From the sequence record PV636260.1: a DNA stretch of 48,147 bases; one strand, 5' to 3'. The position numbers were made by a program, and so were the translations under genes. The notes beneath the pieces are model-generated. The model was not told the DNA's origin. It saw only the letters and a list, made by a program, of their open reading frames with translations, and made no database searches. The DNA comes from a phage. Below are positions 2,115 through 46,971 of the stretch, piece after piece (positions within the stretch are counted from its first letter, which is position 1; the number at the start of each line of letters is the position of its first letter).

Positions 2115-3179
2115 TTACTTATTTTGGTAACGCACCCATGATGGCGTTTCAAGTTCGATCTCGCTTGCGTCGCCAGCGTACCCAGGCCAAATATCCATTT
2201 CAGAGCAAGCCTTGTAAGTGTGGACTACGCTAATGTACTGGTTACGACCGATCCTGATTTGCTCCATAGTCATACGGTAAGCCAGTGCGATATAAGGCTC
2301 TTTTTTCTCCTGCGCAAGCAATCTAACTACGATCGGGATATCTTCAGGGAAGTTGCCTTCAAAAGCGCCAGCCTGGATTGCGCGTCGTAGCAGATCATGC
2401 TGCAAGGCCATTTTCAGATAATACCCGTGATTATATGCAAGGCGCGGGAACTCCAACGGATTTGCGCTCATCGTTGTTTTGAAGTCGGTGATAATCAGTG
2501 CTTCCGGGAAAATAACGTCTTCGAATACCGGATCTCCATTCTCATCATAACCAGTCAGCACACGACCTGGTACATTCTCTTTGTAGTCCAGATGGTCAAG
2601 TCTAACCTTAACCTTTACGCCGGATATCTCACCGAAGATTGAGATCTCACGCTGCGCAGTTTCGCTATTGATGCACGCTTCATGATCGGGATTTTGCTCA
2701 AGAATGGCCCTCATCTTCATACAGGCATCATATTTATCAGCGTCAACCAGTTGCTTTCCTTCAGCGCGCGCCTCAGCTTCAGCAATCAGTTCAATAAGAT
2801 ATTGAACATTGAGATCTTCACCGCAATCAACCATCATTTTGATGAGGTCAGGGTACTGCTTACCGGATGTACCTTTCAGGCCAAAAGATTTTAATTTTGC
2901 TGCCAGTGCCGTTTGCGAAGTAATAAGATCTTTAAACTCTGACGGAGCAGGACAACGCGCATACGTTGCAGTAAACAGATCTCGACTCTCAAAGTTAGTG
3001 TGCGACTGAGTACCGAACTCCAGCGCTTTCGTTGTCTCATTCTTCTTGAATCGCCAGTTAGCTGGGCAAGTTTGATAAATTTCTGCAAGGCTCGATCCGC
3101 TTACATACTCTGCCGCCCAACCTTCGTTGCTATGATACTCGTCATTAGAAAGCTGACTTGATGTGAATACCTGGAACAT
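2115..3179 (-). CDS. recombination exonuclease, PD-(D/E)XK (YqaJ/lambda-Exo-like)
   Basis: RBS AAGGAG; motif ITDFKTT and surrounding acidic residues typical of YqaJ-type nucleases; adjacent to erf and ssb. Confidence 0.7.
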   Translation of the reverse strand: MFQVFTSSQLSNDEYHSNEGWAAEYVSGSSLAEIYQTCPANWRFKKNETTKALEFGTQSHTNFESRDLFTATYARCPAPSEFKDLITSQTALAAKLKSFGLKGTSGKQYPDLIKMMVDCGEDLNVQYLIELIAEAEARAEGKQLVDADKYDACMKMRAILEQNPDHEACINSETAQREISIFGEISGVKVKVRLDHLDYKENVPGRVLTGYDENGDPVFEDVIFPEALIITDFKTTMSANPLEFPRLAYNHGYYLKMALQHDLLRRAIQAGAFEGNFPEDIPIVVRLLAQEKKEPYIALAYRMTMEQIRIGRNQYISVVHTYKACSEMDIWPGYAGDASEIELETPSWVRYQNK

Positions 3180-3210
3180 TGCGCTTATCTCCTTCGTTTA
3201 CGATGAATCC

Positions 3211-3238
3211 ATTATAGCCATTAACAGCGTTTAGTCAA
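3211..3238 (-). promoter_or_regulatory. sigma70-type promoter for the exo-erf-ssb operon
   Basis: On minus strand TTGACT - 16 bp - TATAAT, about 30 nt upstream of the exonuclease RBS. Confidence 0.65.
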
Positions 3239-3647
3239 TCGGATACATGTAATTGGTGTGTAATAGCGTGTCTATATCGCTCAAGTTACAATCAGCATCA
3301 ACAGAATCAATGGCTTAATCCTGTTTTTATGTGGTGTCTATTTCGTAATACTTGTAACCGCTTTTTCTTAGAAATACACAGATATCCATGAATAGAATCA
3401 AGATTGATTATATTTTGAACAAATATGATAGAAATTTGACGAATCAATCAAATCACCTGTTACACGATATACAACTGTTACACAACAATAATTATATATA
3501 TAAAGCTAAAATTAAATATTATCTATCTATATATATTATATAGAGTTTTTATCATATCTCCCTGCGGTCGAATGAGGTCGATTTTGTAACACACCTCCCG
3601 GTTACAAAAATAGACACCTGTTACACGAAAAAATTGTAATCGAACTA

Positions 3648-3676
3648 TTGCAATAAAAGTAAATGCGACATACAAT
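3648..3676 (+). promoter_or_regulatory. sigma70-type promoter for the cor-like/RBP genes
   Basis: TTGCAA - 17 bp - TACAAT, about 30 nt upstream of ATG 3706. Confidence 0.6.
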
Positions 3677-3705
3677 GCAATCACACTAAAGACGAGGACA
3701 CACGA

Positions 3706-3936
3706 ATGAAAAAGTTAATCACCATTATCGCCGCCGCGTTCATCCTGACTGGTTGCGCTCAGAATCTTAAGAATGGCGACTGTGTTACTTACGCTTACGG
3801 ATCTTGCATGATGCGATTCGTTGACGGTCAGAAAGTGCCTGCTGGCGAAATCGATATGCGATTCAAGGGTCTGTCATCCGACGACGATCAGGGCAACTTT
3901 AGCGGCAAGGTGTCAATCAAAACTAAAGAGTGGTAA
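3706..3936 (+). CDS. small outer-membrane lipoprotein, Cor/Llp-like superinfection exclusion candidate
   Basis: Signal peptide with lipobox LTGC (MKKLITIIAAAFILTGC); 76 aa; sits next to receptor-binding locus downstream of J. Confidence 0.65.
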   Translation: MKKLITIIAAAFILTGCAQNLKNGDCVTYAYGSCMMRFVDGQKVPAGEIDMRFKGLSSDDDQGNFSGKVSIKTKEW

Positions 3937-26837: not shown

Positions 26838-26887
26838 GGTGACTATATCAAATCACCCCACCGACGTTTTAGCAATTAGTGCTATTT
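26838..26887 (-). promoter_or_regulatory. repeated element (ATAGCACTAATTGCTAAAAC) plus hairpin with -10-like TATAGT
   Basis: Stop codon TAG of the kinase gene lies inside the element; hairpin GGTGA-N10-TCACC. Confidence 0.55.
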
Positions 26888-28132: not shown

Positions 28133-28181
28133 GGGCACTATATCAAATGCCCTTGAGCAAGTTTTAGCAATTCGTGCTATT
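28133..28181 (-). promoter_or_regulatory. repeated element (ATAGCACGAATTGCTAAAAC) plus hairpin with TATAGT
   Basis: Hairpin GGGCA-N10-TGCCC; element abuts the stop codon of 28180..28626. Confidence 0.55.
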
Positions 28182-29689: not shown

Positions 29690-29973
29690 GGTCTAACCTT
29701 CCTGTAAGGCTTGATTGATAACATCACGTATTGCGTGAAGTCGCATTCTTGCTCGTCATACCCGCGATTGATGTATGGCGTCACATCGGTAACATCGGAT
29801 ACCCTGGCGTGAACTTCCCACCCGGTAAACTCACCGCGATCGAACTCGCGTAGCTCCAGAATATCGCCAGGCCGGAAGTTTCGATCATTGACGCGGAACT
29901 CTGCCGTTTTGGTGCCGTTCATTACTCCAATAAAATGTACCGTGTTGATCTTAAGTTTGTGAATATTGCTCAT
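29686..29973 (-). CDS. ASCH-domain protein
   Basis: GxKxxExR signature (NGTKTAEFR) near N-terminus. Confidence 0.55.
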   Translation of the reverse strand: MSNIHKLKINTVHFIGVMNGTKTAEFRVNDRNFRPGDILELREFDRGEFTGWEVHARVSDVTDVTPYINRGYDEQECDFTQYVMLSIKPYRKVRP

Positions 29974-30163
29974 CTTCCTTCACCTCGAATGTTACGTTCC
30001 AAAATTTATTGCCGCAAGAATGATAGGTTACGTCATGCGGAGTTAGTTCGTGCAATGCATGACCGATGATTTCCATGCGATCGTTCGGTGCCAGGCATCG
30101 AAGTGATTCACGAAGGCGTGAAGCCTTGTCGTAAATCTGCCACTGCGTGAGTCGTGTAGCCAT
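29951..30163 (-). CDS. hypothetical protein (start revised to ATG 30163)
   Basis: Strong RBS AAGGAA before internal ATG; the track start is a TTG. Confidence 0.45.
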   Translation of the reverse strand: MATRLTQWQIYDKASRLRESLRCLAPNDRMEIIGHALHELTPHDVTYHSCGNKFWNVTFEVKEDEQYSQT

Positions 30164-30173
30164 AGCTAATTCC

Positions 30174-30251
30174 TTATTTGCAAAATGGGCAGGTTGATTT
30201 ATTTCCGCTGCCACCATGATTAGGGCAGCACAATTTCTCAATTGGCGTCAT
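30174..30251 (-). CDS. 25-aa Cys-rich mini-protein (not in ORF track)
   Basis: RBS GAGGAA 7 nt before ATG; MTPIEKLCCPNHGGSGNKSTCPFCK; stop TAA overlaps the next RBS. Confidence 0.35.
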   Translation of the reverse strand: MTPIEKLCCPNHGGSGNKSTCPFCK

Positions 30252-30285
30252 AACTGATTCCTCTGATTGGTTGCCATGCTTCAAT

Positions 30286-30335
30286 AAGGCCACTATATCA
30301 AATGGCCTTGCGGAAGGTTTAGCAATTCGTGCTAT
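30286..30335 (-). promoter_or_regulatory. repeated element plus hairpin with TATAGT
   Basis: ATAGCACGAATTGCTAAAC; hairpin AAGGCCA-N10-TGGCCTT. Confidence 0.55.
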
Positions 30336-30481
30336 CGTTTAACACACATTGTTTTTACTTCGTATCCGAACGGCTTGTTTTCTGCAATTACTTCACGAGC
30401 TTTGTTACATGATTGCTGACTCTCCATGTATACGTGATCCGGCCCGGTGCTCATCAGTATAATCAATACCCATGCAGCCAT
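30332..30481 (-). CDS. 49-aa hypothetical protein with hydrophobic N-terminus (not in ORF track)
   Basis: TAATG coupling to upstream gene, RBS GGTGA; stop TAG is the TAG of the repeated element. Confidence 0.4.
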   Translation of the reverse strand: MAAWVLIILMSTGPDHVYMESQQSCNKAREVIAENKPFGYEVKTMCVKR

Positions 30482-31577: not shown

Positions 31578-31629
31578 GTGGTTACTATATCGCAACCACA
31601 TGATCGCGTTTTAACAAAAAGTGCTATTT
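31578..31629 (-). promoter_or_regulatory. repeated element (ATAGCACTTTTTGTTAAAAC) plus hairpin with TATAGT
   Basis: Hairpin GTGGTT-N10-AACCAC. Confidence 0.55.
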
Positions 31630-32441: not shown

Positions 32442-32489
32442 TTGTCTATACCTCGTTGTCTATGGTTGTAACTTTCAACTTCGAAAAAC

Positions 32490-32519
32490 ATGTTACAGCT
32501 ACAACGTCAGATGCGTCAA
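32490..32519 (-). promoter_or_regulatory. candidate sigma70-like leftward early promoter
   Basis: Minus strand TTGACG - 18 bp - TAACAT, about 50 nt upstream of the first gene. Confidence 0.35.
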
Positions 32520-32851
32520 TGTCTATAGCTGCATTTTTTATTTTTGTAACCAGTGCAACCGATGCAACCGACTTTTTCTATAAAAGTAAGAACATCTATT
32601 TATGCGCGCGGAATAGTATGTTTTTTATACTATGCATCACGAAATATATGCCACCCTCAAAAAATGCGGTTGCACCTATTACGCCGATTACATACCAATA
32701 TATAATATAATAAATAAATAAATATATATTATCTATCTTATTATTATATATAGATATTTTATTATCTATAGGCCTATCGATTCTCTGGCCATTTTGTAAC
32801 ACCCCTGATGGTATACAACTATTACGACAATTACAACTAACGCATAGACGA

Positions 32852-32871
32852 ATAGCACGTTTTGCTAAAAA
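32852..32871 (+). promoter_or_regulatory. copy of the repeated element within the large intergenic region (no obvious -10 at the usual spacing)
   Basis: ATAGCACGTTTTGCTAAAAA. Confidence 0.4.
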
Positions 32872-33221
32872 TGGAGATGACCACCAGGCGAACTGGGTAA
32901 CACTAAATCCCCCCTCTCACAATCATTGCAATCTAAGCAACAAATCAACCAACTGTTGCACACCATGCAACAATCACATTTCATCATTCGAGATCAATCA
33001 TGATCGTAATTATTCCAGATATTCCAGTATTGATGGAATAATGAGCAATTATTGGAATAGCATTTTTTGCCACACATCAGCCCTGCCGATCGGGTATGAT
33101 TCATCTCATCAACCAATCAGAGGAGATTTGCAGTGAAATTAATCTGGTCGCTATTCGACGGTTCCGGCCTTGCAGGTCATGAACTTAACTTTGCGCGATG
33201 TCTTCCGTTTTGAGGTGATGA

Positions 33222-33749
33222 ATGATTTGGCACGATTACTTTACATACAATCCGAAAACTGGAAAGCTGTTCTGGAAAGAAAGAAAAGATATACACAAAT
33301 CAAGAGTTAAACAATGGAATGCTCGCAATGCTGGTAATGAGGTTGGCTCTTTGGGTAGTGGTGGCAGATATTTAGAAACTACACTTACTGTAAACGGAAA
33401 ACGTTATAACCTGAAAGTTCATAGAATATGCTATGAAATGCACTATGGCCCAATACCTGAAGGAAAGGCGGTTGATCACGTAAATCACATCACGACTGAT
33501 AACAGAGCAATAAACTTTGAGTTAAAAGATCATAAAGGAAATATGCGAAACACATCAAAACAGAAAAACAATACAAGTGGCATACCAGGTGTGCATAAAA
33601 ATAAACATGGCAAATGGGTTGTAAGGATTGGAGGGGGAAAGCGAGGGAGGAGGATTTACATAGGGTGCTTCTCAAGTTTTGATGATGCGATTTCCGCAAA
33701 GAAAGCAGCTGAATATGAACATGGATACCATGAAAACCACGGCAAATAG
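33222..33749 (+). CDS. HNH endonuclease with C-terminal AP2 DNA-binding domain
   Basis: HNH core VDHVNHITTDNRAINFEL; AP2-like SGIPGVHKNKHGKWVVRI...IGCFSSFDDAISAKKAAEYEHG; RBS GAGGTGA. Confidence 0.7.
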   Translation: MIWHDYFTYNPKTGKLFWKERKDIHKSRVKQWNARNAGNEVGSLGSGGRYLETTLTVNGKRYNLKVHRICYEMHYGPIPEGKAVDHVNHITTDNRAINFELKDHKGNMRNTSKQKNNTSGIPGVHKNKHGKWVVRIGGGKRGRRIYIGCFSSFDDAISAKKAAEYEHGYHENHGK

Positions 33750-33765
33750 CACTTTTTGTTAAAAC
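33746..33765 (+). promoter_or_regulatory. repeated element (ATAGCACTTTTTGTTAAAAC) abutting the HNH stop codon
   Basis: The TAG of ATAGCAC is the HNH stop codon; -10-like TAATTA about 20 bp downstream. Confidence 0.5.
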
Positions 33766-36342: not shown

Positions 36343-36394
36343 ATAGCACTTTTTGCAAAACGCGTGTACCATTGGCGGTGTATCATTCACACCG
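36343..36394 (+). promoter_or_regulatory. repeated element (ATAGCACTTTTTGCAAAAC) plus hairpin with TATCAT
   Basis: Followed by RBS AAAGGAG and start at 36416. Confidence 0.5.
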
Positions 36395-36415
36395 TCAACA
36401 AAGGAGTTTATTGTG

Positions 36416-37984
36416 ATGTTTAATATTAAGCCAAAACTGAATTACCAACAGATTATTGAGATCGCAAATAGCACTGGAGTTAATCCGGTGGCGATCGCAA
36501 TTCGTGAAAACAGCTATGGGGATTCAGTTTCGTTTTGGCAAGATCCGATCGATATAAACAGTGGAAACGATAAGTTCCCGCTGATTTCGTTAGGTGGCGA
36601 TAACCTGGTATTCGAATATGCAAAGGCAAAGGCTGAGTCTGTACAGTTCCCTGTTTCGTCTGCGTACGCTCATTTCATTGGGTGCATCTCAGCCGCGATG
36701 CTCGGGAAGTTTTGGGTGCAATATCACGGAGAAGAGCAACCGACAGCTCTTTACATGGTGATTAGCCAGCCACCTTCAACGGGTAAATCCGCGATTAACT
36801 CAGCGGCAATTACACCTATGCGTGCAGAGATTCAGCGACTGAATGAAGAGCGAAAAAAGGAACGTATCCGCTTAACCAGTCAGCTACGTCAGGTCGAGAA
36901 GGAAATTAAAAACGACCCGAAGGGTAACACGACGGCGGCGCTGTACGAGGACAAAGAAAAACTGGAAGAGAAGATCAAGAAGATGGCTGATATTGTTTTC
37001 GCGGTATCAGATCCTACACCTGAAGGTCTAGCGAAGGTAGCTGCTGTTCAAGGTCATTTCTCCGTAATCTCTGATGAGGCGACAGCAATCAATACATTGC
37101 TCGGCCTGACTTATGGTGGTTCAGACAAGAAATCAAATAGTGAGCTTATCCTTAAGGCGTGGGATAAAAACCATATGGAGGTGGCGCGTTCCAACCAGGA
37201 TAACAACTTGTCCCTTTGCCCGGTCGGTTCCATCTGCGTTATTGCGCAAGATGAAACAATCAAGGGCATCATGGACGCAGGCCAACGAGGCATCGGCGTA
37301 TCTGAGCGTTTCCTTTTAGTTCGTGAGGAACCGCTTTTAGGTACTCGTATTCTTTGTGATGAAAATGGTGATGCGCTGTATAAGGAAGTCGATCGAGGAT
37401 TGGTGAGTAAATATTATCGACTCGTGCACAACATCATGAAAGAGGATAACGTTGTTCTCTATGTAAGCCGTAATGCTATGCGTGAATTAAACCTTGCGCG
37501 TCAGGCGATGGAACCGGATTTCGCCGCAGGTGGGAAATACTCTCACTCAATGCTACGCGGTCATCTCGGCAAGTTCGATAAGCACGCCTTGCGTATTGCT
37601 TCAGTTCTCCACACGATCAAGAATTGGGAGGGTGAATCACCGAACCGTTCCAACCGTGAGATTGACCTTGAAACAATGCAAGAAGCGATCATGATTTTCA
37701 ATGAGCTTTCCAGGACTTATCTGTCGTCTGCCAGCGCTGCCGGGTATGCTGGTGATGAGGCTGAATCTCGTAAGCTGATTGATGTTATCACTGAGATCGC
37801 AAAGAAGAATAAAGGGCGCGCTCCTATTCATAGCATCGTTGCAAAGTGCCGGAACGTTACGCCGTTCAACGGTCAACAGAAAGTATCTGAGCGAATCGAC
37901 AGCCTGCTGATCACGCTCGAAGAGATGAACTACACTTGCCGCATTGATGATATTGTTTTCATCAATCCTAGACTGATGGGTTAA
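36416..37984 (+). CDS. putative ATPase with degenerate Walker A (QPPSTGKS)
   Basis: Start moved to ATG 36416 after AAAGGAG; the track start 36353 lies inside the regulatory element. Confidence 0.55.
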   Translation: MFNIKPKLNYQQIIEIANSTGVNPVAIAIRENSYGDSVSFWQDPIDINSGNDKFPLISLGGDNLVFEYAKAKAESVQFPVSSAYAHFIGCISAAMLGKFWVQYHGEEQPTALYMVISQPPSTGKSAINSAAITPMRAEIQRLNEERKKERIRLTSQLRQVEKEIKNDPKGNTTAALYEDKEKLEEKIKKMADIVFAVSDPTPEGLAKVAAVQGHFSVISDEATAINTLLGLTYGGSDKKSNSELILKAWDKNHMEVARSNQDNNLSLCPVGSICVIAQDETIKGIMDAGQRGIGVSERFLLVREEPLLGTRILCDENGDALYKEVDRGLVSKYYRLVHNIMKEDNVVLYVSRNAMRELNLARQAMEPDFAAGGKYSHSMLRGHLGKFDKHALRIASVLHTIKNWEGESPNRSNREIDLETMQEAIMIFNELSRTYLSSASAAGYAGDEAESRKLIDVITEIAKKNKGRAPIHSIVAKCRNVTPFNGQQKVSERIDSLLITLEEMNYTCRIDDIVFINPRLMG

Positions 37985-45422: not shown

Positions 45423-45441
45423 TGTCACGGCTATTAATCCT

Positions 45442-45470
45442 TTGAATCGTTGTAACGTTTACGCTATAAT
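45442..45470 (+). promoter_or_regulatory. sigma70-type promoter for the HTH regulator gene
   Basis: TTGAAT - 17 bp - TATAAT; flanked by inverted repeat AACGTTTAC / GTAAACGTT. Confidence 0.6.
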
Positions 45471-45488
45471 ACACGGCATAAAGTAAAC

Positions 45489-45510
45489 GTTTTTAGCAAA
45501 AAGTGCTATA
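45489..45510 (-). promoter_or_regulatory. repeated element (ATAGCACTTTTTGCTAAAAAC) upstream of the helicase
   Basis: Its -10-like TATTAT is the complement of the plus-strand TATAAT region. Confidence 0.5.
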
Positions 45511-45521
45511 GGAGAATCAAG

Positions 45522-45974
45522 ATGAGTATTCAACGTATCGCAGAGTCAACTGGTGAAATCGATAAACGTCACATCAATGGTAACAACGGAACACGGCGCG
45601 GTAAAGATAAAAAGCCTCGACAGCGTTGCGGGTTCTATATTCATAAAGAAGAAACACGCGCCGGACTGCGAGCGCGACTTGATGCTCTTATCGAATATTA
45701 CGGCGGCCCTGCGGCCTGCGCAAAGGCTCTAAAAGTTAGCAATCAGACGGTGCAAGGCTGGAAAGATCGAAATATGATTTCATGGCAAGGCGCTGAAGCT
45801 GCGCATCGCGCTTACCGCCGACAGGGGTGCAAAGGATTTCGTGCCGCATGGTTGCGATTCGACCTGAAGTTTGACGGTAACGGCAAGTGCCTTGAGAAGC
45901 GATGCAAGAACAAGAAATTTATGCGCGTCGTGAAGAAGGAAGATATCGGAACTACCAATAGCATTTTTAGTTAA
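45522..45974 (+). CDS. putative DNA-binding regulator (Cro/YdaS-like HTH)
   Basis: RBS AGGAGA; HTH-like AACAKALKVSNQTVQGWKDRNMIS; Cys/His and basic residues. Confidence 0.5.
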   Translation: MSIQRIAESTGEIDKRHINGNNGTRRGKDKKPRQRCGFYIHKEETRAGLRARLDALIEYYGGPAACAKALKVSNQTVQGWKDRNMISWQGAEAAHRAYRRQGCKGFRAAWLRFDLKFDGNGKCLEKRCKNKKFMRVVKKEDIGTTNSIFS

Positions 45975-46035: not shown

Positions 46036-46971
46036 GTGAACGAAGAATTTATGATGTTTCAGAAAGAGGACGTTTTGCCGTACATGAAGGGGTTATGGCG
46101 CGAGGCTTTCCAATCAATCTGCGGATTGCCGAATGATGTTTTTAATAAGAAGCACCAACCTTGCCCCAACTGCGGCGGTAAAGACCGCTTTCGCTGGACC
46201 GATAACTTAAACACTCCTGGCGACGGCGGCGCGATCTGCAACTCATGCGGGAACGACTCCGGGATCGGGTGGCTAATGAAATTAACTGGTATGCCGTACA
46301 GTGAATGTATAAACATCCTGGGGAGATTTCTCGGCAAGGTTCCGCAGGAATACATTGTTAAGGCAAACAAGAAAGCACGCAGGACTCCGGTATCTGGTGT
46401 CAATGTCATGATGGCAGATCATGAAGCGGTGATGAAAGTCATGGAGCGTACAGAGAAGCGCGTAAACACACCTCTAAGCATGTTTGAATCTCTACCTACT
46501 GAATCATTCGACGTTGGCGTAAAACGTCGCGAGGATGGCGGCGAGAGCGTATTTCACACCATACCATGTCAACTTGTACACGAGGACGGTCTTGATGATG
46601 AGTTTTGTAATATTTTGATTATTGATGAGGAGGGTAGGGAGTCATTTTACGCTAAGAAATACACAAGTTGCTCGGTTGCCGTGACTGGTAAAACAGAAAA
46701 AGCGATCTACTTATGCCTTAATTGGATTGATGCTCAGCATATTGCATTTCACACAAAGCAAGAGGTATGGGCCTGCTTCACTCCTGAGAATCTGGAAATG
46801 GTTGCATACAGATATAAAGGGGATCGAGAAGTAAGGGTTGCGTGCGAACCTTCAGACAAGGAGACTTTATACATGGCAGACGACCGACAATTAAAAATAA
46901 TCATCCCAAATCCTGGAGGATACCGCTCAGGAATGCAAGCCAAGTTATTCTCAGCAAGTGACCTACTCTGA
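46036..46971 (+). CDS. DNA primase with N-terminal zinc-binding domain
   Basis: CPNCGG...CNSCGN zinc ribbon; acidic IIDEEG motif; next to the helicase. Confidence 0.7.
   Translation: MNEEFMMFQKEDVLPYMKGLWREAFQSICGLPNDVFNKKHQPCPNCGGKDRFRWTDNLNTPGDGGAICNSCGNDSGIGWLMKLTGMPYSECINILGRFLGKVPQEYIVKANKKARRTPVSGVNVMMADHEAVMKVMERTEKRVNTPLSMFESLPTESFDVGVKRREDGGESVFHTIPCQLVHEDGLDDEFCNILIIDEEGRESFYAKKYTSCSVAVTGKTEKAIYLCLNWIDAQHIAFHTKQEVWACFTPENLEMVAYRYKGDREVRVACEPSDKETLYMADDRQLKIIIPNPGGYRSGMQAKLFSASDLL

Follow-up and report, generated by a model that had tools for sequence, protein, structure and literature searches.

Where do T1-type phages start to replicate their DNA? T1 has been under study since the 1940s, and the phages of its family, the Drexlerviridae, have uses in therapy and are dreaded as contaminants in the laboratory. 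No origin was found in genome papers on T1 relatives (PMC11447400, PMC7718038), the paper on phage TLS finds iteron-like repeats nowhere in the TLS genome (PMC11447400), and our literature search for T1 origin mapping, marker-frequency, or plasmid-rescue data found nothing usable. Here, we analyzed a non-coding element, which we call e1, in the genome of a T1-like phage (Tunavirus; sequence record PV636260.1, the whole 48-kb stretch of which is referred to as the window). The element fills the 526-bp gap (3180 to 3705) between the recE-like exonuclease gene exo on its left (2115 to 3179, minus strand) and the cor lipoprotein gene on its right (3706 to 3936, plus strand); erf and ssb lie on the same strand as exo, farther downstream. 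It is well supported by the comparisons below that e1 represents a conserved non-coding architecture, common to the family, that would bind protein. We further give about an even chance to e1 being a cis-acting DNA–protein assembly site, most likely a replication origin or an origin-like initiator-binding site, and it appears to be the best candidate so far for the T1-type replication origin.

Repeats and AT-rich core of e1

The GC content is 0.27 to 0.28 over 3300 to 3600, compared to ~0.45 for the genome. At the center is a core of ~75 bp and ~90% A+T (3484 to 3557), which aligns with a second locus at 32688 to 32818 and which we propose as a DNA unwinding element. The 80-mer starting at 3478 (70/80 A/T) is the second most AT-rich of the genome, after one in the second locus at 32692 (73/80), and the next reaches 62/80.

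Short repeats cluster on both sides of this core. When compared to dinucleotide shuffles, e1 contains seven copies of GTTACA/TGTAAC versus 0.44 expected (with a maximum of 3 in 1,000 shuffles), three of ATAGACA versus 0.15, and three of CTGTTACAC versus 0.00. The exact copies of CTGTTACAC, at 3457, 3475, and 3618, are the only three in the window, while CACCTGTTACACGA is found twice and CAACTGTTACACAA once in e1. Counting the GTTACA-type sites, further direct copies, and the ATAGACA sites, there are 9 to 10 sites, including an inner GTTACA-type pair in inverted orientation ~100 bp apart and an outer pair ~240 to 265 bp apart. From left to right, we distinguish a composite unit ATAGACAC-G-CTATTACAC (3258 to 3277, minus strand), about −72 to −54 from the start of the exo promoter; the repeat CACCTGTTACACGA (3454 to 3467, plus strand), whose GTTACAC core is invariant; and a composite unit ATATACAACTGTTACAC (3467 to 3483, plus strand), which reads ATAGACAACTGTTACAC in most relatives and forms the left arm of an inner bracket. 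The right arm of this bracket, TTTTGTAACAC (3582 to 3592, minus strand; ATTTTGTAACAC in the second element), is 102 nt from the site at 3477 to 3483. It is followed by a composite unit ATAGACACCTGTTACAC(GA) (3610 to 3628, plus strand), about −74 to −54 from the start of the cor promoter, and by a variant site CGATTACAAT (3633 to 3642, minus strand), which adjoins the −35 box of that promoter.

An earlier note on this DNA had described an AT-rich stretch between divergent promoters, bracketed by a long-range inverted repeat and containing short repeated units. Both the inverted repeat and the inner units are present, the stated coordinates being off by 1 to 2 nt. The left arm of the outer inverted repeat (3333 to 3360) consists of GGTGTCTATTT, an 8-nt insert, and TTGTAACCG, and the right arm (3599 to 3618) is CGGTTACAAAAATAGACACC. 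Inverted pairing is 11/11 between GGTGTCTATTT (3333 to 3343) and AAATAGACACC (3608 to 3618) and 9/9 between TTGTAACCG (3352 to 3360) and CGGTTACAA (3599 to 3607), with spacings of 264 and 238 nt for the two halves. Of 500 dinucleotide shuffles, 18 gave an 11-nt inverted repeat that was perfect and had three or more G/C (p ~0.04), so that the 11-nt half alone is only weakly significant. The divergent promoters were also recovered, as predicted outward sigma-70 sites flanking the AT-rich stretch. One, for the exo-erf-ssb operon (3238 to 3211, minus strand; TTGACT-16-TATAAT, 11/12), is invariant across the Tunavirus sequences aligned below, has a promoter annotated at the same place in record OL960579, and shares its box, which served as a search pattern, with KLB26 and tonnikala. 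The other, for cor (3648 to 3676, plus strand; TTGCAA-17-TACAAT), is conserved in the same alignment, and the rightward promoter annotated in OL960579 is ~37 nt upstream of it.

We then looked at conservation. The gap shows 91 to 97% identity to its counterpart in 65 T1-like (Tunavirus) records, among them T1 (29853 to 30377); most of these records carry no annotation there, and one (OL960579) carries the two promoters. In an alignment of 12 distinct Tunavirus sequences (the window phage and 11 relatives), there is an ultra-conserved block (3424 to 3557) consisting of two direct GTTACAC sites and the AT core, in which 8/134 columns vary (6%), whereas variable columns make up 22 to 26% of the flanks and 27% of the initial 40 nt of cor. 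Outside the core, 5/82 motif positions vary versus 80/286 non-motif positions (Fisher p = 1e-5). These findings indicate that the motifs and the AT core of e1 are under purifying selection. The bracketing inverted repeat proposed in the earlier note fares unevenly in the alignment. Its 9-nt arm is perfect in 8/11 relatives, and the inner bracket, GTTACAC at 3477 to 3483 and TGTAACA at 3585 to 3591, is invariant in 11/12 sequences. In contrast, the 11-nt arm, on which the note had laid stress, is the least conserved part, perfect in the window phage only and matching at 7 to 10 of 11 positions in the 11 relatives (7/11 in T1). Since position 3470 is a G in most relatives, the true repeated unit would be ATAGACAnCTGTTACAC, with three to four versions in the window. 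In phage IME347, two sites in inverted orientation, one of them homologous to CACCTGTTACACGA at 3454, have both changed from GTTACA to GTGACA.

Of the features of phage or plasmid origins built from iterons or repeats and an AT-rich core, e1 displays clustered short repeats in non-coding DNA, an adjacent AT-rich segment, and an association with replication genes, as it precedes exo-erf-ssb.

A paralogous element and the pattern across the family

The earlier note suggested comparing e1 with the region at 32.4 to 33.2 kb, and a Smith–Waterman comparison revealed a paralog of e1 at 32.4 to 33.0 kb. This second element, e2 (32442 to 32990, with a core at 32688 to 32818), lies at the divergence of two early gene blocks. 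Positions 3478 to 3607 of e1 align with the e2 core with a score of 71, versus 24.6 ± 2.7 in shuffles. The two elements have TGTAACA and ATAGACA/TGTCTAT in common and, although they make up only ~2% of the genome, contain 6/7 genomic copies of TGTAACA and 6/9 of ATAGACA. In T1, e1 is 92% identical to that of the window, and e2 is 58% identical, with the words ATTACG and three copies of CGATTAACAC.

We wondered how widespread such elements are and surveyed loci around exonuclease homologs, together with 80 loci around the gene for a helix-turn-helix (HTH) protein described below. All 65 loci holding exo display a core of 62 to 72 A/T per 80 nt upstream of the exo operon, which is 304 to 360 nt from the exo gene in 55/65, irrespective of the upstream neighbor. 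The region lies outside any divergent junction in TLS-like phages as well as in Webervirus, where it comes immediately after the HTH-primase genes and precedes exo-erf-ssb. The flanking repeats are clade-specific, while the geometry around the core is kept. Tunavirus has GTTACA and ATAGACA, with an inner bracket of TGTTACA and gaps of 102 and 120 nt; Braunvirinae and Nouzillyvirus have GTTAC(G/A) and TATACAC, with an inner bracket of GTTACAT and a gap of 66 to 68 nt; and Webervirus has ~10 copies of GTAAGAT, with an inner bracket of ATCTTAC and a gap of 103 to 106 nt. Tempevirinae have repeats of the GTTC(C)AC type, for which an inner bracket was not consistently detected. In the Klebsiella phage Sanco, a 39-nt inverted repeat made of GTAAGAT units (2087 to 2125 and 2347 to 2385 of locus L007; 90% complementary) brackets the AT core upstream of exo, with 221 nt between its arms, and in phage YSP2, the arms of a 20-nt inverted repeat, 70% complementary, are 222 nt apart. 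These spacings match those of the outer repeat in the window (238 and 264 nt). A second element at the early-gene divergence is also present in DTL, tonnikala, P817, and Sanco, and, within one genome, e1 and e2 clearly have repeat words in common in the window phage, DTL, and Sanco. Motif enrichment, purifying selection, the e2 paralog, and a family-wide architecture with clade-specific repeats give good support to the earlier proposal of a factor-binding architecture as opposed to a simple spacer.

The surroundings of e2 have features of their own. A motif not common to e1, CGGTTGCA/TGCAACCG, is found three times in e2 (32553 to 32570 and 32667 to 32674), as a tandem GCAACCGATGCAACCG and one inverted copy, with four further genomic copies outside e2. 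The first gene to the right of e2 encodes an HNH endonuclease (Pfam HNH_3; 33222 to 33749, plus strand); homing endonuclease genes are found at differing places in DTL, tonnikala, and P817 and may add to the mosaicism around the elements. The T1 record begins (nt 1) with what is annotated as a 2.8-kb terminal repeat; this position corresponds to ~32971, which is ~150 to 280 bp from the e2 core, and Rtp-like phage records also open inside their e2. A palindrome with a 12-bp stem, CAACTGTTGCACACCATGCAACAATCA (32950 to 32976), coincides with the start or end point of T1 and several other records. Since the start point of the T1 record is annotated as the terminal-repeat start, the first packaging cut may lie at 32950 to 32976.

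Candidate repeat-binding proteins

Which protein might recognize these repeats? The candidate repeat binder is a Cro-like HTH protein (phrog_2856; 45522 to 45974, plus strand), which databases label a transcriptional regulator. Besides its PHROG match, it shows weak matches to Pfam P22_Cro (E = 5e-5, 23 bits, below the 30-bit cut-off) and to Cro structures in the PDB (E = 0.004 to 0.02). In database searches, this protein is confined to the T1-type phage family, and among plasmids, where a homolog would have pointed to an autonomous replicon, the only match is a 49.6-kb record (~51% identity) that is presumed to be a phage genome. The winged helix at the C terminus of the DUF3987 helicase is a second candidate. 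This protein (36353 to 37984, plus strand; Pfam E = 4.5e-42), a candidate replicative helicase, belongs to helicase superfamily 6 (SF6) and is MCM-related. DUF3987 proteins have been described as MCM-related SF6 members with a C-terminal winged helix and proposed as replicative helicases (PMC4889955), and for one member, 5′–3′ helicase activity and binding to its primase have been demonstrated (PMC11724360). The window phage also encodes a primase (46036 to 46971, plus strand) whose zinc ribbon is of the T7 gp4/P4 alpha type. This primase, identified by family matches, shows no co-variation with repeat class.

Both candidates are co-inherited with the repeats. P817 (L036) carries repeats of the Braunvirinae type, yet most of its proteins are closer to those of Tempevirinae and Tunavirus. 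Its HTH protein (160 aa, encoded between helicase and primase) is 89% identical to that of DTL (L011), versus 54% for tonnikala and 53% for the window, and its DUF3987 protein is 92% identical to that of DTL, versus 71 and 56%, respectively. Across eight genomes with repeats of this class (class B), HTH proteins are 86 to 96% and DUF3987 proteins 89 to 100% identical, whereas the identity is 44 to 96% for the primase, 51 to 98% for the SF2 helicase, and 51 to 98% for the exonuclease, in several combinations. Between repeat classes, the HTH proteins differ in their predicted recognition helix, which agrees within each class. IME347, the genome with the paired GTTACA to GTGACA change, has an HTH protein that is 80% identical. 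We also considered the small terminase subunit as a repeat binder and rejected it, since that of P817 (57% identical to DTL, 60% to tonnikala, and 56% to the window) does not co-vary with repeat class.

Two minor observations concern these genes. In P817, the binding protein for single-stranded DNA (SSB; 60% versus 44 to 45%) and a Cor-like lipoprotein (81%) are also closer to those of DTL. In the window, the 93 bp that separate the SF2 helicase gene from the HTH gene (45429 to 45521) carry a single TGTAAC/GTTACA site (45451). This site is shortly downstream of the promoter-like repeat of the helicase and may be autoregulatory or due to chance (~0.06 expected).

Proposed replication origin or other functions

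How might e1 work as an origin? We infer protein binding, unwinding, and initiation at this site, in the following order. A sequence-specific phage protein, the HTH protein and/or the winged-helix end of DUF3987, would occupy the sites flanking the AT core; its binding would bend or loop the DNA and destabilize the core; the DUF3987 helicase would then be loaded onto the opened core; and the phage primase would prime synthesis, to be elongated by the host DNA polymerase III. e2 would be a second origin or a partner site, comparable to SPP1 oriL/oriR or P4 ori/crr. If so, e1 would be the missing cis element of a large family that takes in coliphages and Klebsiella phages and would provide the first model of DUF3987-dependent initiation. 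Our analysis names two regions of 100 to 500 bp and two proteins as targets for the question of the T1-type origin.

Several points weigh against this interpretation. The case for an origin is built on anatomy, selection, and co-inheritance, origin function being deduced from architecture only. Neither e1 nor e2 contains a DnaA box (TTWTNCACA), and e1 has no GATC (versus 2.7 expected) and no GATC clusters, although this excludes only an oriC-like origin; any origin at e1 would hence be phage-specific. The match of the HTH protein to P22_Cro falls short of the Pfam cut-off. T1 and the window have HTH and DUF3987 proteins that are 99% identical, yet the e2 of T1 is divergent and uses other words, which makes the link between proteins and repeats suggestive, not strict; in addition, e1 and e2 share words weakly in T1 and P817 and not at all in tonnikala. 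A strict one-to-one link of HTH/DUF3987 to the repeats of both elements is weakened by these cases, and we do not retain it. Co-variation may partly stem from shared ancestry or from linkage, the latter because the DUF3987 gene is 3.4 kb from e2. Lastly, the units at 3258 to 3277 and 3610 to 3626 are equidistant upstream of the two predicted promoters, and the distance between the core and the exo operon is nearly constant, both of which fit transcriptional control.

Transcriptional control is the main alternative explanation of e1 as a whole, possible if somewhat unlikely. GTTACA and ATAGACA would then be operator or activator sites for a Cro-like regulator switching the exo-erf-ssb and cor promoters and, at e2, both early operons, while the AT core would be merely bent or easily melted upstream DNA or an insulator. 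Both elements are indeed in promoter-bearing gaps, ATAGACAC(N0-1)CTRTTACAC is found at approximately −72 to −54 of both promoters of e1, which is a typical upstream-activator position, and the candidate binder bears a weak resemblance to Cro. Given the equidistant composite units and the constant distance of 304 to 360 nt to the exo operon, the sites could be regulator sites. Moreover, two paralogous control regions at early promoters, with type-specific short sites and a Cro-like protein, recall OL/OR in the immunity regions of lambdoid phages. The sites nevertheless differ from those of OL/OR in that they stay clear of the promoter boxes, do not form 17-bp palindromes, are present in larger number, and enclose a long AT core. 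None of them overlaps the −35/−10 boxes of the two predicted promoters, the nearest ones being upstream of −35, and 9 to 10 sites over ~400 bp around a 90% AT core (10 copies in Webervirus) exceed what a promoter switch needs. The most conserved part, the AT core with its inner bracket, is ~250 nt from the exo promoter, there is no divergent junction at the element in TLS-like phages and Webervirus, and co-inheritance with a replicative-type helicase is unexpected for a pure regulator. Our literature search for transcript-start mapping in Drexlerviridae found nothing usable. If e1 did act in transcription instead, it would comprise the control sites of early and recombination genes and be the target of the only recognizable regulator of the family. 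Origin and transcriptional roles may also coexist at e1, as they do at many phage origins.

The other explanations have less in their favor. A site for host nucleoid proteins (integration host factor [IHF], Fis, or H-NS) or a curved AT-rich spacer, with no phage-specific factor, would account for the high AT content and for the single match to the IHF consensus in e1, at 3305. This match is in a variable stretch, however, the G/C-containing repeat words are clade-specific although several classes infect the same host species, the motifs are under selection, and the paired site change in IME347 would be surprising, all of which makes this explanation highly improbable. We regard a packaging role, whether as a pac-like sequence, a sequence recognized by the terminase, or a secondary pac site, as likewise highly improbable. 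The idea draws on the closeness of e2 to the annotated T1 terminal-repeat start, on the Rtp-like records that open inside e2, and on five ATATA repeats once proposed as the T1 pac motif, as reported in PMC8421802. However, e1 is 29 kb from the T1 terminal-repeat end, which maps next to e2 rather than e1, the repeat class is not tracked by the small terminase subunit, and a constant position beside recombination and replication genes is unexpected for a packaging site. We know of no second T1 packaging series in the older T1 literature. That e1 hides a gene for a small protein or a small RNA is scarcely credible. ORFs of 46 to 53 aa are present on both strands, the largest (3388 to 3543) encoding 51 aa, and the CLB_P3 record annotates hypothetical proteins in the gap, but this ORF is broken by a 2-nt indel in two relatives and has a variable start region and no Pfam match. 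An Rfam search of 3100 to 3800 gave only a chance-level match to a microRNA model (21 bits versus a 70-bit cut-off), and the AT core, folded as a single strand, is no more structured than shuffles (z = −0.01), on which ground we also rejected a structured RNA or hairpin-type origin there. The sequence evidence speaks against both a gene and a structured RNA at e1.

Returning to e1 as an origin, we asked which known systems it resembles. Archaeal origins have inverted origin recognition box (ORB) elements around an AT-rich unwinding element, at which MCM is loaded. At e1, inverted elements likewise bracket an AT core, and DUF3987 is distantly related to MCM (PMC4889955), which makes for a resemblance in layout only, since no Orc1/Cdc6 homolog was found and the sites, at 6 to 9 bp, are not ORB-like. 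Satellite phage P4 offers a second parallel. Its ori and crr are said to be two separated cis regions with the same short repeats, in work attributed to Ziegelin et al. and Yeo et al. The window phage similarly has two separated repeat regions and a primase zinc ribbon in the same Pfam family as that of P4 alpha. P4 alpha, however, fuses primase, SF3 helicase, and origin binding, whereas primase, SF6 helicase, and HTH protein are separate here, the repeats are different, and binding is putative. In the P4-type system, the repeats are recognized by a winged-helix domain at the C terminus of the replicative helicase (PMC4889955).

The closest described case to e1/e2 is oriL/oriR of Bacillus phage SPP1, which combine repeats with an AT-rich unwinding element, are both bound by the phage initiator gp38, and are kilobases apart, one being in a long intergenic region (PMC6316719). 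oriR has been proposed to stall forks, with exonuclease, annealase, and SSB switching replication to concatemer synthesis (PMC6316719). As in SPP1, there are two origin-type elements in the genome of a lytic siphovirus, and e1 is directly upstream of exo-erf-ssb. SPP1 uses a DnaB-type helicase with a loader, whereas in the window phage the helicase is of the MCM-related DUF3987 type and the primase is a separate protein; the e1 repeats, in both inverted and direct orientation, bracket the AT core; no homology to gp38 is present, in sequence or in protein; and the origin role of e1 is putative. These comparisons allow a fuller model, unlikely to hold in all its parts, in which the Drexlerviridae have two paralogous origins, with inverted sites around an AT core as in archaeal or herpesvirus origins, where a small Cro-like protein would, as the specificity factor, load the DUF3987 helicase, in interchangeable specificity classes; e1 might double as the place of handover from theta replication to recombination-dependent concatemer synthesis. 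If true, this would be an initiation system of a type not yet characterized in bacterial viruses.

Lastly, we compared e1 with the 21-nt direct repeats of TLS/T1-type phages, aaATAGCACnnnTTGnTAAAA, which are listed as unexplained in the TLS paper (PMC11447400). In the window, the repeat ATAGCACnnnTTGnTAAAA has 24 matches versus 2.2 expected. The units of e1 are not members of this family-wide set, since the consensus has no match within three mismatches in 3180 to 3705. There is nevertheless a likeness: ATAGACAC-CTG-TTACAC-GAAAA resembles the 21-nt repeat with one base inserted, and this composite unit lies upstream of the cor start codon by ~80 to 100 nt and is oriented with transcription. 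In contrast to the 21-nt repeat, it is ~60 rather than ~39 nt from the −10 box and lacks the small inverted repeat around −10. The 21-nt repeats themselves (e.g., 26867 to 26885, 28162 to 28180, 31609 to 31627, and 45491 to 45509 on the minus strand and 33746 to 33764 on the plus strand) each have a TAnnnT box ~28 nt downstream, often with TG in front of it, and span roughly −50 to −32; at many copies, an inverted repeat of 4 to 8 bp flanks the −10-like box. This geometry suggests that the 21-nt repeats mark activator-dependent promoters without a −35 box.

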